A stretch of DNA of 40,933 nt from a virus (taxonomy: Duplodnaviria; Heunggongvirae; Uroviricota; Caudoviricetes): IMG/VR virus record IMGVR_UViG_2563366852_000006, positions 1 through 40,933 of that record. One strand, written 5' to 3'. The notes under the pieces are model-generated. The model had not been told where the DNA came from. It saw nothing but the letters and a program-made list of their open reading frames with translations, and made no database searches. Every line of letters begins with the position of its first letter. Within the stretch, counting starts at the first letter, position 1. The translations under genes and the position numbers were made by a program. Positions 6,279 to 8,870 of this stretch are shown piece by piece.

Positions 6279-6641
6279 TTAATGACCTGCTGCGCGGAGT
6301 TTTCCGTCAGGCTCACCGGCAAGAGTCAGTAATTGTCCCTGGTCTTCCTGCAGAATAGTCAGGCGACCACCGCGATTGACATACATCGGCGTTTCGGTGG
6401 TGTCTTCTTCGGAAATTTTCCCACGGTTAGTCGGGCGAACATATGAGAGTTTGTGTTTGATTTTCACACGGTTCTCATCAAATGGTTCGATTTCCAGGTT
6501 GAGTGAGACCTTACCTTTGGTTTTCGTGTTCATCACACCGGAAGCGACTTCACTGAGAACTGCGCCGATTTTGGTTTCAAATACGCCGCCGTCCAGCTCC
6601 CCGATAAATGCCTGCACATCAGTACTGCGTTCACTAGCCAT
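6279..6641 (-). CDS. Hypothetical early protein (120 aa), first gene of the leftward operon
   Basis: Start re-chosen at MASERST (6641) with GAGGAG RBS upstream; the track's N-terminal extension to 6872 is Cys/Arg-rich and looks non-coding. Confidence 0.55.
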   Translation of the reverse strand: MASERSTDVQAFIGELDGGVFETKIGAVLSEVASGVMNTKTKGKVSLNLEIEPFDENRVKIKHKLSYVRPTNRGKISEEDTTETPMYVNRGGRLTILQEDQGQLLTLAGEPDGKLRAAGH

Positions 6642-6689
6642 TTTGCTGCTCCTCATCATATCGACCCTGCAAGGTCGGTTAGTTTCTCC

Positions 6690-6778
6690 ACAAAACAGAG
6701 AAGAACACCTGCGGTGGCAGCCGCCCGGATGGATTGGGTTATGAGCCCGTCGTCCGATGATGTTCTTCTCTGTTTTGT
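6690..6778. repeat. 18-bp perfect inverted repeat (ACAAAACAGAGAAGAACA / TGTTCTTCTCTGTTTTGT) with a 53-nt GC-rich spacer, in the leader of the leftward operon
   Basis: Arms at 6690-6707 and 6761-6778 are exact reverse complements. The spacer contains a nested GCGG-TGGCAG-CCGC hairpin. No credible ORF covers it. Confidence 0.6.
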
Positions 6779-7236
6779 AAAAAGAGCGGTACCAGCCGGA
6801 AGCAAGTGTACAAACTGGTACCGCCAAAGCAGTGGCTGTTGTGGTGGGGTTGTCACTCAGGCGTATGGTCAACCTGACAATCCGGTGTCCTCAACGGGGA
6901 AAGAGTAACCCCGCCATACTTACCGCCGCGCCATTTCGCGGATTACCACAACGCTGAGAGCACTTAGCCAGTTACGGCACCACACTTTGTCGCGGTTCCA
7001 TAAATGCCCTCATCGTTGCACCCTGGTCTCTTCCCAGGCGTCAAACCGAATCGCCACGCTGGTTAGGCGTCTTATCAGCATCATCATTGACTTGCACATT
7101 CCGGCTACCTGGTTTGTTTGCCCGAGCAAGGAGTGGATTATCCCCTTTAACGTCACCAGACCGCTAACGACGCATGTGCCATACGCCGTGTTACAACCAA
7201 ATTTTGTTTTAATCTTGCCTGTGTTATGTTTCTTTT

Positions 7237-7253
7237 AGATACATTATGTATCT
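7237..7253. promoter_or_regulatory. Palindrome AGATACA-TTA-TGTATCT, candidate operator or promoter element (oL-like position)
   Basis: Perfect inverted repeat in the 670-bp non-coding region between cI and the leftward operon, followed by GGTACATTGTCAAG. Confidence 0.3.
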
Positions 7254-7273
7254 CATGGGTACATTGTCAAGCA

Positions 7274-7297
7274 TAAAAAAACCTGCCGAAGCAGGTT
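7274..7297 (-). terminator. Rho-independent terminator downstream of cI
   Basis: Hairpin ACCTGC-CGAA-GCAGGT (7281-7296) followed on the minus strand by a T-run (plus-strand AAAAAAA 7274-7280), immediately after the cI stop. Confidence 0.6.
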
Positions 7298-7309
7298 CAT
7301 AAATATTGA

Positions 7310-7984
7310 TTAGGCCTTTATTGTGTATCTTCTTGGTTTTCCCGAGAAAATCACTGTACCAATTATAGAGCAATTACCGTTAATCTTAATGTAAGGCTCA
7401 GGCCAGTTTGGGTTTAATGCTTTGAGATAACGCTGTGTTCCATCTTCTATCAACCGCTTGAAGGTGGTTTCGCCTGAATCGTGCATCAATGCAATAACGT
7501 CGTCACCGTGGCAGGCAGGGACTTCAGGATCTACAAAAATCATGTCTCCCGGGCGGTACTCATCAATCATTGAATCACCAATCACCCGCAAGATATAAGT
7601 CATTTCGCCACAGGGTACAGGGCAGGGATAAGTTTCTGCTGTGCTCAAATCAACCTCAGAATAGCCAACTTCTTTCCATGCTCCGGCCTGTACCCATGAT
7701 ATGACAGGGACTAACGTTATTTGTTTGTTAGTAATTGAAACATCAGGTTTTTTTGTGATGTTTGTTGTCTGGTGTTCTTGATCAAGCCATCCGACAGGCA
7801 GGTCGAAACATTTTTCGATGTGCCGTGCCATGCTGTCACCGATATTTTTAGTAGCACCATCTCCCATAAACCTGCTGGTCTGGGTTGGCTCGCGATCAAT
7901 CATGGTGGCAAAGGAAGAATTCCCGCCAACACCATCTCTCAGTTTTCTGGCGTTAGACCGCCGGATGTCATGGACTGTTTTCAT
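7310..7984 (-). CDS. cI: CI-type prophage repressor (LexA-like S24 peptidase domain)
   Basis: C-terminal S24 autoprotease signature (ILRVIGDSM ... TTFKRL); divergent from a cro-like gene across an operator-bearing intergenic region. Confidence 0.85.
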   Translation of the reverse strand: MKTVHDIRRSNARKLRDGVGGNSSFATMIDREPTQTSRFMGDGATKNIGDSMARHIEKCFDLPVGWLDQEHQTTNITKKPDVSITNKQITLVPVISWVQAGAWKEVGYSEVDLSTAETYPCPVPCGEMTYILRVIGDSMIDEYRPGDMIFVDPEVPACHGDDVIALMHDSGETTFKRLIEDGTQRYLKALNPNWPEPYIKINGNCSIIGTVIFSGKPRRYTIKA

Positions 7985-8001: not shown

Positions 8002-8019
8002 TGTACCGATAGGGTACAA
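8002..8019. promoter_or_regulatory. Operator-like palindrome TTGTACC-N4-GGTACAA in the cI-cro intergenic region
   Basis: Inverted repeat between the divergent cI and cro starts; a second partial palindrome TACA-TAT-TGTA overlaps the cro RBS near 8063-8074. Confidence 0.5.
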
Positions 8020-8074
8020 GTATCTTGAAGGTTCATCTCAATCATGTAATATGTATATTGGAGGTACATATTGT

Positions 8075-8306: not shown

Positions 8307-8870
8307 ATGAGGCTAACCGTGGGTAAGCATCACTGGAAAGTAGAAAAACAGCCTGAGTGGTACGTGAAAGCTGTCAGAAAAACTATCGCGGCGTTGCCGG
8401 GGGGGTACGCTGAAGCTGCTGAGTGGCTGGATGTAACAGAGAACGCTTTATTCAACCGCCTTCGTGCAGATGGCGATCAGATTTTCCCGCTGGGATGGGC
8501 AATGATTTTACAGCGCGCGGCTGGCACTCACTACATTGCGGATGCTGTCGCACAGTCTGCTGGTGGGGTGTTTGTATCGCTTCCTGAAATTGAGGAAGTA
8601 GAGAACGCCGATATAAACCAGCGCCTGCTGGAAGTCATCGAACAGATCGGGAGTTACTCAAAGCAGATTCGTTCGGCAATCGAAGACGGGGTAGTGGAGC
8701 CACACGAGCAGACAGCAATTAATGATGAGTTGTATCTGTCAATTTCGAAGCTCCAGGAGCATGCAGCACTGGTCTACAAAATCTTTTGCGCTCCAGAAAA
8801 GAGTGACGCCCGCGAGTGTGCAGCTCCGGGCGTCGTGGCGTTTTGTGTCTGTGGAGAAACTAACGCATGA
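8307..8870 (+). CDS. CII-like phage regulatory protein (CP76-type), tentative
   Basis: 187 aa directly downstream of cro; HTH-like LDVTENALFNRLR then an acidic helical region. Family call is from memory. Confidence 0.4.
   Translation: MRLTVGKHHWKVEKQPEWYVKAVRKTIAALPGGYAEAAEWLDVTENALFNRLRADGDQIFPLGWAMILQRAAGTHYIADAVAQSAGGVFVSLPEIEEVENADINQRLLEVIEQIGSYSKQIRSAIEDGVVEPHEQTAINDELYLSISKLQEHAALVYKIFCAPEKSDARECAAPGVVAFCVCGETNA

Follow-up and report, generated by a model that had tools for sequence, protein, structure and literature searches.

Few bacterial small RNAs have been known for as long as DicF, yet work on its operon continues. The C4 antisense RNA of P1 and P7 is a tRNA-like phage RNA that is processed by RNase P from a longer early transcript. 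Processive antiterminator RNAs such as put of HK022 and HK639 and the Bacillus EAR element modify RNA polymerase, and ROOL and GOLLD are large, ornate and conserved tRNA-adjacent phage RNAs whose function is not known. Stems cut by RNase III occur in the lambda N leader, at T7 R1.1-type sites, and in the processing stalks of 16S and 23S rRNA. For DicF itself, a 190-nt species requires RNase III and a 53-nt species requires RNase E, and the published ydfABC-dicF and read-through transcripts amount to partial termination at the DicF terminator in the Qin prophage (PMC10448788).

We analyzed a 40,933-nt stretch of tailed-phage DNA (hereafter the window), in particular the gap at positions 6642-7309 between a repressor gene and the first leftward gene. 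In our assessment this gap is probably a repressor-controlled leftward promoter followed by a 590-base untranslated leader, which is built of four conserved RNA modules (A to D in order of transcription) and is related to the DicF locus. The first-pass annotation of this DNA had read an inverted repeat in the gap as an isolated hairpin; it is really one module, D, of this leader, and the largest module, A, had been missed.

The gap and its leftward promoter

The flanks of the gap are as they had been annotated, with the repressor gene and a terminator-like hairpin on one side and the first leftward ORF on the other. A LexA/S24-type (cI-like) repressor is encoded at 7310-7984 of the minus strand. 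Its stop codon is followed immediately by the intrinsic terminator of the gene, an 8-bp GC-rich hairpin (7298-7279, minus strand) followed by a T-run. The first leftward gene, also on the minus strand, is preceded by the Shine-Dalgarno sequence GAGGAG (6654-6649) and starts with ATG at 6641-6639; its 120-residue product matches phrog_204 of the PHROGs collection, which has no assigned function.

The ORF table bears out the view that the roughly 670 bp in between hold no credible ORF. Every ORF of the gap is short, with 83 aa at most, and the table additionally extends the first leftward gene to a TTG start. Among relatives the gap varies by hairpin-length indels and compensatory base changes and not in a codon-like manner. 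Some phage records carry short hypothetical proteins over the region, and the K-12 annotation places ymfH over a copy of modules C and D in the e14 prophage; short ORFs annotated over these elements, among them ymfH of e14 and hypothetical proteins of Ayreon and mEp460, are unlikely to be real genes. No N-like antiterminator gene was indeed found among the leftward ORFs tested; their matches (phrog_204, DUF2303 and an HD-type phosphatase) do not include N. We also considered orf33 of phage SfV as an N analogue and dropped it, as it has no arginine-rich motif and belongs to no known family.

A pL-type promoter, previously only proposed for this gap, is present on the minus strand at 7270-7243, where TTGACA and CATAAT are separated by 16 nt and match the sigma-70 consensus at 11 of 12 positions. 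Phage Ayreon, which is 98% identical here, has an annotated promoter at the same place. Two adjacent predicted operators, TGTTTCTTTTAGATACA (7227-7243) and TGTATCTCATGGGTACA (7247-7263), both overlap this pL-like promoter, in agreement with the earlier suggestion that the gap could contain operators. They follow the motif TGTAYC-N5-GRTACA, which at up to two mismatches has seven matches in the 41-kb window. Five of these seven lie here and in the cI/cro gap (8002-8068, three copies), leaving only two elsewhere. The palindrome AGATACATTATGTATCT that had been pointed out at 7237-7253 is confirmed in the sequence; it marks the junction of the two operators and hence represents two abutting operator half-sites. 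The operator region also contains a 20-nt direct repeat with 20-nt spacing (family D3).

Folded as RNA, the whole leader reached -231 kcal/mol on the minus strand (z = -5.2) and -207.5 kcal/mol on the plus strand, so that the minus strand is 24 kcal/mol more stable. In addition, the paired columns of modules A and D contain G-U pairs on the minus strand only, which on the other strand, and in DNA, are mismatches. Given the more stable minus-strand fold and these covarying G-U pairs, we take the leader to be transcribed on the minus strand, and all modules below are described in that orientation.

Modules B and C and their relation to DicF

Module B (6837-6952) is a cloverleaf-shaped RNA homologous to the 5' part of the DicF precursor of 190 nt. 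Identity is 89% with a 123-nt segment of the E. coli K-12 Qin prophage (L012 2752-2874), whose end is 9 nt upstream of dicF, and 75% with the P1 'dicF-like region'. The free-energy fold of B is a four-way junction; across relatives 92.6% of cells are paired, with variation too small for a covariation test.

Module C (6779-6836) was delimited by an inverted repeat, by folding and by alignment, and consists of a DicF-related small-RNA candidate with an intrinsic terminator. The terminator stem is a 10-bp perfect inverted repeat (I7) with arms at 6824-6815 and 6795-6786, followed by UCUUUUU, and the module folds with -21.2 kcal/mol (z = -3.0). SfV has an annotated terminator at the same place. 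C and DicF share the stretch UUGGCGGUAYCAGUUU, which is the 5' arm of the DicF terminator. The 5' 14 nt, with the seed CAGCCACUGCUU in C and UUUCUGGUGACGUU in DicF, and the hairpin loop differ. With a different seed and loop, targeting of ftsZ, xylR and pykA cannot be assumed for C; as judged by sequence alignment, C does not carry the DicF regions that pair with these three mRNAs. The Rfam model of DicF (RF00039) gave no match at the gathering score in the window, nor at E <= 10 on 6550-7400, and the same search detected K-12 dicF with 76.7 bits as a positive control. The context of C is that of DicF: it follows a precursor domain, lies in a repressor-controlled early operon and ends in a Rho-independent terminator. 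The first-pass annotation had listed a small RNA among the possible contents of the gap, and this is likely to hold for C, which combines the DicF-shared stretch and the terminator with a position after the precursor-domain homologue. The small-RNA role is predicted, and C may be a terminator only.

The order of repressor, promoter, precursor domain, small RNA/terminator, inverted repeat and ORF also occurs in Qin, e14, SfV, F1055 and a phiV10-type cassette. As in the Qin dicF locus, the repressor-controlled promoter is directed away from the repressor gene, the precursor domain is preceded by a long-range helix with a shared signature, and an inverted repeat separates the small RNA from the next ORF. 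Qin differs in that it has no A-core, in that the element after dicF is a module other than D, and in that ORFs (ydfABC) stand ahead of its RNAs, which is not the case here.

The leader is a mosaic with module boundaries at GTTGTGG. In phiV10-type phages the end of module A is the exact start of a true tRNA-Arg, and in our locus B occupies this slot. The arrangement recalls C4, a copy of which was found by an Rfam scan at 9328-9415 of the window. Unlike C4, however, B and D were detected neither as tRNA nor as C4, and cleavage by RNase P at this locus is a conjecture.

A long-range helix, predicted to be an RNase III stem

Between A and B lies the long-range helix HM1, whose 5' strand (7018-7004) and 3' strand (6965-6949) enclose a variable insert (7003-6966). 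Duplex energy and homology predict that it is an RNase III stem. In the window HM1 is an 18-bp duplex of -25.3 kcal/mol; in relatives 18-22 bp are maintained despite changed sequences, around inserts of 56-264 nt that contain T-arm-like hairpins. The strands were compared by duplex energies, and a MAFFT alignment put variants longer by one nucleotide out of register. Strands paired with their own partners gave -28.2 kcal/mol compared to -23.2 kcal/mol for cross-pairing, and the own partner ranked first in 7 of 14 cases, a moderate preference.

The 5' end of the 190-nt DicF RNA corresponds to L012 2746-2751 and falls within the 3' strand of a 22-bp long-range helix in Qin. This Qin helix, HM1 and the stem of module D have a common signature: the 5' strand reads AAC..AAGAGCAU and the 3' strand reads GUGCUCUU..GUUGUGG. 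Both HM1 and the D stem are continuous duplexes of about two turns in the transcribed strand, as is expected of an RNase III substrate, and by homology with the Qin helix both would be cleaved by this enzyme. They resemble the RNase III stems of phage leaders and rRNA in being duplexes of about two turns that are formed from payload-flanking sequences and are placed between functional RNAs of one transcript. They differ from those stems in that D carries as its payload a conserved three-way junction, one arm of which resembles tRNA-fMet, in place of rRNA or a simple loop, in that the helix has its own conserved signature that recurs in several modules, and in that cleavage is at present a prediction.

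Module D and its initiator-tRNA-like arm

The 18-bp inverted repeat itself was found as described previously: acaaaacagagaagaaca (6690-6707) and tgttcttctctgttttgt (6761-6778) are exact reverse complements that lie 53 nt apart. A repeat search extended the arms to 25 nt at 88% identity (6690-6714 and 6754-6778). By our own arithmetic, a perfect 18-bp inverted repeat is expected by chance about 3e-6 times in 668 bases. The spacer had been thought to contain a hairpin of its own. It is indeed structured, but contains three nested helices and not a single one. Module D (6690-6778) is a 20-bp helix (6778-6759 paired with 6709-6690) capping a three-way junction; the junction carries a hairpin at 6724-6711 and, at 6748-6736, an anticodon arm like that of initiator tRNA. 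Its minimum-free-energy fold has -42.2 kcal/mol (z = -7.2 compared to 200 shuffles) and equals the structure that was tested for covariation.

Covariation among relatives, the check that had been proposed for this repeat, was carried out with 18 sequences. The D structure has 94.9% of cells paired compared to at most 48.6% in slid controls, and 10 pairs changed on both sides compared to at most 3. In the 20-bp stem 96.7% of cells are paired and 5 pairs changed on both sides. A wider survey collected 100 variants in 146 loci, and 82% of the variants stand directly after a T-run.

These data bear on the proposal that the repeat acts as DNA, be it a cruciform, a protein site, a recombination site or a mobile element, or that the gap hides small protein genes. 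The perfect 18-bp arm pair could form a cruciform, the region is mosaic with its GTTGTGG boundaries, and proteins have been annotated over these elements, as noted above. Nevertheless, we regard the proposal as highly improbable: covariation preserves pairing and not sequence, the G-U pairs in paired columns would be mismatches in DNA, most relatives have a G-T at pair 16-86 and hence an imperfect DNA repeat, and the repeat is not dispersed within the window. The short ORFs are broken in relatives by hairpin-length indels.

The sequence CGGGCTCATAACCC in D is that of the anticodon arm of the metZ tRNA-fMet. The 14 identical nucleotides (6749-6736) are in the same stem-loop register, span the three G-C pairs and the CUCAUAA loop, and sit at the tip of a covarying arm. 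D therefore contains a local mimic of a tRNA arm. In tRNA-fMet the three G-C pairs mark the initiator, the CAU anticodon is read by MetRS, and the anticodon loop is cut by enteric VapC. The dominant form, GGGCTCATAACCC, accounts for 100 of 152 copies in a search whose pattern fixed TCAT, so that this count carries no independent weight for the conservation of CAU itself. The e14 copy has the loop UUAAUAA, and loop positions 1, 6 and 7 are variable in other copies.

Mimicry of tRNA could be the main function of the leader, with D, and possibly A and B, acting through host machinery that recognizes tRNA. The D arm might bind the 30S P site, IF3 or MetRS and so control translation of the first gene, or it might serve as a nuclease or defense decoy, released against VapC-type toxins that cut initiator tRNA or against other tRNA-directed defenses. 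On this view the long D stem would provide a scaffold or a means of release. Besides the identity with tRNA-fMet and the frequency of the dominant form, the location of D about 45 nt upstream of the ribosome-binding site is consistent with such a role. So are the T-arm-like hairpins in the helix inserts of relatives and the elements that follow A in relatives, which are a true tRNA-Arg in 22 of 112 variants and, in others, cloverleaf modules closed by GUUGUGG..CCACAAC. On the other hand, an ARAGORN search of the window for tRNA and tmRNA was negative, as was the Rfam tRNA model in the region, the loop departs from the tRNA sequence in e14 and at the three variable positions, and mimicry is compatible with RNase III processing and not an alternative to it. 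As the main function, we consider tRNA mimicry rather unlikely.

Between D and the ribosome-binding site are a conserved GUGGAGAAACUAAC and a small hairpin, E (6660-6679), with a fold of -8.5 kcal/mol (z = -2.9). In relatives the stem sequence of E varies, and the pairing and the UUGCAG loop are kept.

Module A is a conserved pseudoknotted RNA

The A-core (7017-7190) was defined by a family profile and by covariation. It comprises hairpins H1, H2, H4 and H5 and a CACC:GGUG pseudoknot between a loop and downstream sequence; a loop contact GCACA:UGUGC may exist in addition. The single copy in the window matched the profile with an nhmmer E value of 7e-36. In an alignment of 40 sequences, 95.2% of cells are paired compared to 29-47% in slid controls, and 15 pairs changed on both sides compared to 2-6. 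Homologues occur in P1, Uetakevirus phages and Enterobacterales prophages, usually joined to a tRNA or tRNA-like RNA, and the range of the A-core is restricted to Enterobacterales.

The absence of an N-like gene raises the question of whether A could be a cis-acting processive antiterminator RNA that allows read-through of the C terminator and later terminators without N. A starts 45 nt after the predicted transcription start and upstream of the C terminator; strict promoter-like sites are enriched eight-fold upstream of A-core copies (26% compared to 3.4%); and a pseudoknot with long invariant single-stranded stretches is typical of RNA that binds macromolecules. Like put, A is a structured RNA that comes soon after the leftward early promoter of a lambdoid phage without N and lies upstream of terminators. 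It differs from put in size and fold (about 175 nt with a pseudoknot compared to stem-loops of about 70-126 nt) and in being present once, with no copy in the rightward operon, whereas put has left and right sites. Moreover, A has no sequence relation to put: the HK022 and HK639 immunity regions, including the annotated putL-like RNA, gave no nhmmer match to the A, B and D profiles. About three quarters of the A copies have no nearby strict promoter match, and several sit after another RNA module. The P1 copy of A is next to trnI, on the downstream side of the dicF-like terminator in the ban operon. Terminators downstream of A are weakly enriched (42 of 101 compared to 95 of 357), a result that carries little weight since the crude finder used loops of 3-8 nt and misses C-type hairpins. 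SfV has the same promoter, C terminator and D and lacks A and B; A is therefore dispensable for read-through and processing of the rest. Taken together, we judge the antiterminator role of A to be improbable. The suggestion of a nut-like site in the gap does not hold, as there is no N gene, the H5 loop is the 7-nt GAAGAGA and not a GNRA-like pentaloop, and homology to put is absent.

A riboswitch-like structure had also been envisaged for the gap. In such a reading A, or D together with hairpin E, would be a riboswitch-like or protein-binding sensor of an ion, a metabolite or uncharged tRNA, or of some protein of the phage or host, and would set read-through or translation of the early genes. 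The location in a 5' UTR would suit such a sensor, as would the complex conserved folds with invariant unpaired GGAAUGUGCAAG, GGCG and the GAAGAGA loop in A, and the conserved elements between D and the ribosome-binding site. In contrast, no covarying alternative pairing of the terminator/antiterminator kind, or one sequestering the Shine-Dalgarno sequence, was found, and no Rfam riboswitch matched at E <= 10. Copies of the modules are found ahead of unrelated genes, ahead of tRNAs and within operons, and in the window two further modules and a terminator separate A from the ORF. We consider a sensor very unlikely.

A model for processing of the leader

The reading that we favor, with moderate confidence, is that of a processed leader of the dicBF type, which would both release a small RNA and attenuate the early genes. 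Departure of the cI-like repressor from the two operators would allow transcription to begin near 7236 and to proceed leftward through the four folded modules. RNase III would cut two duplexes of about 20 bp, namely HM1 after A and the D stem formed by the inverted repeat, and RNase E, perhaps with RNase P at the tRNA-like B, would trim the pieces. The predicted products are a free A RNA; a B+C precursor that would mature into a DicF-family small RNA of about 55 nt ending at the terminator (6795-6779); and a capped mini-RNA from D with the initiator-tRNA-like anticodon arm. The C terminator would halt part of the transcripts and thereby attenuate the early genes. Transcripts that read through would be cut in D, separating the mRNA from the upstream RNAs and leaving it with hairpin E and the ribosome-binding site. 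Upon the observed promoter and operator motifs, modules, structures, conservation and homology to the DicF locus, the model thus places a predicted start site, predicted cleavages throughout, putative partial termination, and putative trans roles for A, C and the D payload. It assigns A no function, and the exact initiator-tRNA anticodon arm in D is left unexplained.

Relation to described RNA families and distribution

No Rfam 15 family corresponds to A, B or D, as judged from a scan of the window at gathering thresholds, a scan of the region at E <= 10, and scans of ten related loci. The weak matches obtained (STnc50, mir-3617 and others) were far under their thresholds and represent look-alikes of terminators and long hairpins. 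AgvB and AsxR have Rfam families, which did not match in the window; the Pas small RNAs of pathogenic E. coli were rejected because they are located in late regions; and resemblances to RNase P RNA, SRP RNA and boxA/boxB were seen by eye only and had no model support. No description of A or D came up in literature searches by topic and by sequence string, though part of this may have been noted by Faubladier and Bouche (1994) in their work on dicF-like prophage sequences. Two modules combine strong covariation with the lack of an Rfam family: A, a pseudoknotted RNA that usually adjoins tRNAs, and D, a three-way junction in which the anticodon arm of initiator tRNA is copied exactly.

Like ROOL and GOLLD, the A-core is a conserved structured non-coding RNA of prophages that is often found beside tRNA genes. 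Unlike them, it has no Rfam match, is much smaller (about 175-290 nt), is confined to Enterobacterales, and is located inside an early-operon leader with a DicF-type small RNA.

A broader reading can be offered tentatively, in which the A-core and D each represent an undescribed class of phage RNA in a modular system that cuts small RNAs from one early transcript. In this equally speculative picture, a reusable RNase III helix bearing the HM1/D signature would frame the payloads, and tRNAs or their mimics would punctuate them. With similar reserve, the released payloads could be imagined to mimic parts of tRNA, in the present case the initiator anticodon arm, and to engage, or act as decoys for, host factors that recognize tRNA; candidates are MetRS, RNase P, the 30S P site together with IF3, and anticodon nucleases such as VapC-type toxins. 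Were the modular system real, it would represent control of translation, or counter-defense, by phage RNA only. If A or D were to act on the translation or tRNA-processing machinery or against tRNA-targeting defenses, they would exemplify a novel type of RNA interaction between phage and host.

As seen from this window, the DicF locus is one instance of a much wider modular RNA leader that occurs in lambdoid prophages, P1 and Uetakevirus phages. At least 80% of the leader version described here is present in about 16% of complete E. coli genomes. Single-module copies occur in the K-12 prophages Qin and e14, which makes the predictions testable in a standard laboratory strain.

Promoter, operators and boundaries of the gap

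On one side of the gap (6642-7309) lies a repressor gene of the LexA/S24 type (7310-7984, minus strand) with a terminator-like hairpin (7298-7279, minus strand), and on the other the first leftward ORF (120 aa, no assigned function; ATG at 6641-6639, minus strand), with a DUF2303 (YfdQ-like) gene coming after it. The first-pass annotation had seen no credible ORF here, and the ORF table indeed contains only short, unconserved ones. Its suggestion of a pL-type promoter with operators was also upheld. A minus-strand promoter (TTGACA, 16 nt, CATAAT; 7270-7243) agrees with the consensus at 11 of 12 positions and is overlapped by two matches to TGTAYC-N5-GRTACA (7227-7243 and 7247-7263). This motif, with up to two mismatches allowed, occurs seven times in the 41-kb window, including three sites between the repressor and cro-like genes (8002-8018, 8019-8035 and 8052-8068). 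Because the two matches abut at the promoter, the palindrome AGATACATTATGTATCT, confirmed at 7237-7253, consists of the right half of one operator and the left half of the next. Judged by these motifs the layout is a standard pL/OL arrangement, and leftward transcription is predicted to start near 7236. The proposed nut-like structure did not hold up, as an N-like protein gene is absent.

A mosaic leader

BLAST searches of phage genomes found the entire gap at 98-99% identity in Stx2c-converting phages, cdtI, Ayreon and 2H10, and isolated pieces of it in otherwise unrelated phages. The leader is pieced together as a mosaic from RNA modules, which along the minus strand run A, HM1, B, C, D and E. 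Its minus-strand RNA has a folding energy of -231 kcal/mol (z = -5.2 versus shuffled sequence), and the plus strand is less stable (-207.5 kcal/mol, z = -4.8). That this folded leader serves as a riboswitch or protein sensor is very improbable.

The core of module A (7190-7017) is present once in the window and has homologues at about 80% identity in several settings. In Uetakevirus of the phiV10/TL-2011b type its end is the exact start of tRNA-Arg(UCU), and the cassette concerned is flanked by the terminase and portal genes; P1, P7 and their relatives have it directly behind tRNA-Ile2, ahead of ban; and Salmonella, Enterobacter and Klebsiella phages carry it as well. A pattern scan of viral contigs returned at least 120 loci, with 112 distinct variants when loci fetched earlier are included. 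Scanning one genome per species gave 25 true copies, all but one of them in Enterobacterales; the exception, on a contig of 1.75 kb with the label Bacillota MAG, is probably contamination. Eleven more pattern matches in other phyla were rejected as chance, since the other motifs are missing. Promoter-like sites are enriched upstream of A copies (26% versus 3.4%); most copies have no promoter under a strict rule, and several come after another RNA module.

A structure for the A-core was drawn up by eye and then tested on 40 sequences against slid-partner controls and 500 shuffles. It comprises helices H1, H2, H4 and H5 together with a pseudoknot in which the 7-nt loop of H4 pairs with a segment lying 12 nt further downstream; this pseudoknot switches cleanly between CACC:GGUG (35 sequences) and AACC:GGUU (five). 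Cells were paired in 95.2% of cases, versus 29-47% with partners slid, and 15 pairs changed on both sides, versus 2-6 in these controls. None of the 500 shuffles equalled the observed values in four of five measures; for the fifth, further pair types, 38 did. H5 (7069-7052, minus strand) is a covarying 5-bp stem with the loop GAAGAGA that resembles lambda boxB (loop GAAGA), from which it differs in its 7-nt loop; the N-like protein gene is absent.

An antiterminator like put or EAR is a doubtful identity for A. The gap as a put site, and A as one of the put antiterminator RNAs of HK022 and HK639, were both rejected on comparison, A being unrelated to those RNAs. The comparison with SfV also weighs against this role: SfV shares its repressor, promoter, C and D with the window, and at the place of A and B it has a protein gene with no assigned function and a different tRNA-like module. 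As SfV thus carries C and D without A, A is optional cargo, unneeded for reading through C.

In phiv142-3 (locus L004, 2820-2930) and other phiV10-type phages, the cassette between the terminase and portal genes lies on the opposite strand and holds A, tRNA-Arg(UCU) and a DicF-related small RNA with a terminator, after which come a hairpin formed by an inverted repeat, another terminator and a small accessory ORF. The leader seems to move in its entirety, as a portable expression cassette. One record has the tRNA annotated on the wrong strand.

Modules HM1, B and C and their link to DicF

HM1 is a minus-strand helix whose 5' strand CAACGAUGAGGGCAUU (7018-7004) pairs with the 3' strand AAGUGCUCUCAGCGUUG (6965-6949) around a 38-nt insert. 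Relatives keep a duplex of 18-22 bp with both strands changed and inserts of 56 to 264 nt. Pairing with the own partner was only moderately better than with the partners of other variants (-28.2 versus -23.2 kcal/mol), and the own partner ranked best in 7 of 14 cases. Helix-framed inserts in A relatives (SPN1S, L008 about 1620-1730; L107, L113 and L083) contain T-arm-like hairpins such as CTGGTTCAATTCCAG and GGTCAGTTCGATTCGGACACC, so that the helix module may deliver various tRNA-fragment-like payloads.

Module B (6952-6837) is 89% identical to the E. coli K-12 Qin sequence just ahead of dicF. Its identity to the part of the P1 ban operon annotated as "dicF-like region" is 75%, and compensatory changes can be seen by eye. 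Its free-energy fold, a four-way junction with the closing stem GUUGUGGU/ACCACAAC, fits the 11 available variants (92.6% paired), which vary too little to test covariation. Module C (6836-6779, minus strand) is a perfect 10-bp hairpin followed by UCUUUUU. It aligns with DicF, the small RNA of the Qin prophage dicBF operon, and with its SfV and e14 counterparts over UUGGCGGUAYCAGUUU; the 5' seeds differ. As C falls below the Rfam DicF model in scans of the window and gap region and has another seed, we do not file it as DicF.

DicF is cut out of the dicBF transcript as a 190-nt RNase III-dependent and a 53-nt RNase E-dependent species, and the DicF terminator stops part of the transcripts (PMC10448788). 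In the Qin locus (L012), the 190-nt species has its 5' end at positions 2746-2751, which belong to the 3' strand of a long-range helix of 22 bp immediately ahead of Qin B. This helix and HM1 have a common signature, AAC..AAGAGCAU in the 5' strand and GUGCUCUU..GUUGUGG in the 3' strand. By homology, therefore, B and C together would be the counterpart of the 190-nt precursor and HM1 that of its RNase III site.

In H2 of the A-core, the segment UCUGGUGACGUU (7149-7160, minus strand) coincides exactly with nucleotides 3-14 of DicF, a match with an estimated chance of about 1e-3 that may reflect a shared seed or an evolutionary link; P1 has UUUCUGGUGA just past its A-core (L006, about 2690-2700). 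A third recurrent cloverleaf-like module, GUGGUGAAUGCGGCUSAGCGC ... CACCNGGCACCAC, closed by a GUUGUGG/CCACAAC-type stem and with no Rfam family, stands in for B in many loci; it occurs in SfV (L002, 2730-2830), e14 (L172, 1350-1480) and Qin (L012, 2950-3090, dicF to dicB).

Module D and hairpin E

The inverted repeat reported in the first-pass annotation is exact (6690-6707 and 6761-6778, 53-nt spacer), and a repeat finder extended its arms to 25 nt at 88% complementarity. It forms the stem of module D (6778-6690), which starts directly at the end of the terminator T-run. Two scans combined gave 100 distinct variants at 146 loci, most without A, and 82% of the variants sit right after a T-run. 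D is a 20-bp helix topped by a three-way junction, with CCGGA/UCCGG stacked on a GGG-CUCAUAA-CCC hairpin as first arm and a GCGG-CUGCCA-CCGC hairpin as second; this model is also the minimum-free-energy fold (-42.2 kcal/mol, z = -7.2). Among 18 sequences, 94.9% of cells were paired versus at most 48.6% in slid controls, and 10 pairs changed on both sides versus at most 3. Folding and covariation across relatives, as proposed earlier, thus revealed conserved paired structure in both the A-core (40 sequences) and D (18). The perfect 18-bp repeat is peculiar to the window, with a G-U at pair 16-86 in most relatives. Several pairs in D are of the G-U type on the minus strand, so D cannot be read at the DNA level or on the plus strand; that the gap is a DNA-level element or holds hidden ORFs is hardly credible.

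The D stem strands bear the signature common to HM1 and the Qin RNase III helix, and some loci have a D-type payload within an HM1-type helix. On this basis, the most economical reading is that D would be a further copy of a reusable RNase III "frame". The tip of its first arm, CGGGCTCATAACCC, matches the anticodon arm of E. coli initiator tRNA at all 14 nt, a stretch that covers the three G-C pairs and the CAU-containing loop; the chance of any 14-mer match to any tRNA is about 0.01, an estimate made before the structural register is counted. That tRNA mimicry is the primary function of D is unlikely, and such a function would be compatible with processing. Rfam has no family for A, B or D, the A-core had no Rfam 15 match when the window, gap region and related loci were scanned, and no description of A, B or D was found in the searchable literature, leaving aside a 1994 paper on dicF-like prophage sequences. 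The less likely reading makes A and D new classes of RNA that act by mimicking tRNA. A conserved GUGGAGAAACUAAC and, after it, hairpin E (6679-6660, minus strand), whose stem varies in sequence and retains pairing in relatives, set D apart from the Shine-Dalgarno sequence. In another prophage with A and D, a 127-nt match to the Rfam tRNA model (L105, 1077-1203, minus strand; 43.9 bits) may be a tRNA with an insertion.

A proposed model of a processed leader

From the DNA motifs, folds, covariation and homologies of the leader we infer all RNA ends and all trans-acting effects in a dicBF-type model, which we consider probable. The gap is in part homologous to the non-coding portion of the dicBF operon and may work in a similar way. 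Loss of the repressor would free pL, and the untranslated leader RNA would fold one module after another. RNase III would cleave HM1 and the D stem; the pieces would then be trimmed by RNase E, perhaps together with RNase P at the tRNA-like B. A DicF-family small RNA with its 3' end at the C terminator would accumulate, the terminator would attenuate the early genes, and the cut in D would part the read-through mRNA from the upstream RNAs.

Prevalence and copies in E. coli K-12

At least 80% of the region is present in 894 of 5,426 complete E. coli genomes, and some module in 4,770. In K-12, B adjoins dicF in Qin, and e14 has a tRNA-like module, C and D beneath the annotated gene ymfH; the model is therefore testable in K-12. 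The e14 gene (L172, 1363-1674) is overlaid by the tRNA-like module (GTGGTGAATGCGGCTCAGCGC...CACCACAAC), a DicF-related hairpin with terminator and a D-type element with the loop UUAAUAA instead of CUCAUAA, and may be a mis-annotated RNA locus.

RNAs of the rightward operon

The rightward operon contains, in tandem, gathering-level Rfam matches to isrK (9227-9303, plus strand; 60.1 bits) and C4 antisense RNA (9328-9415, plus strand; 80.1 bits), which suggests an immI/anti-Q-type RNA switch. Both lie within ORF 8867-9703, possibly a doubtful call, whose annotation in SfV is 'immunity region' protein orf37. SfV has the same isrK/C4 pair (L002, 5487-5675).
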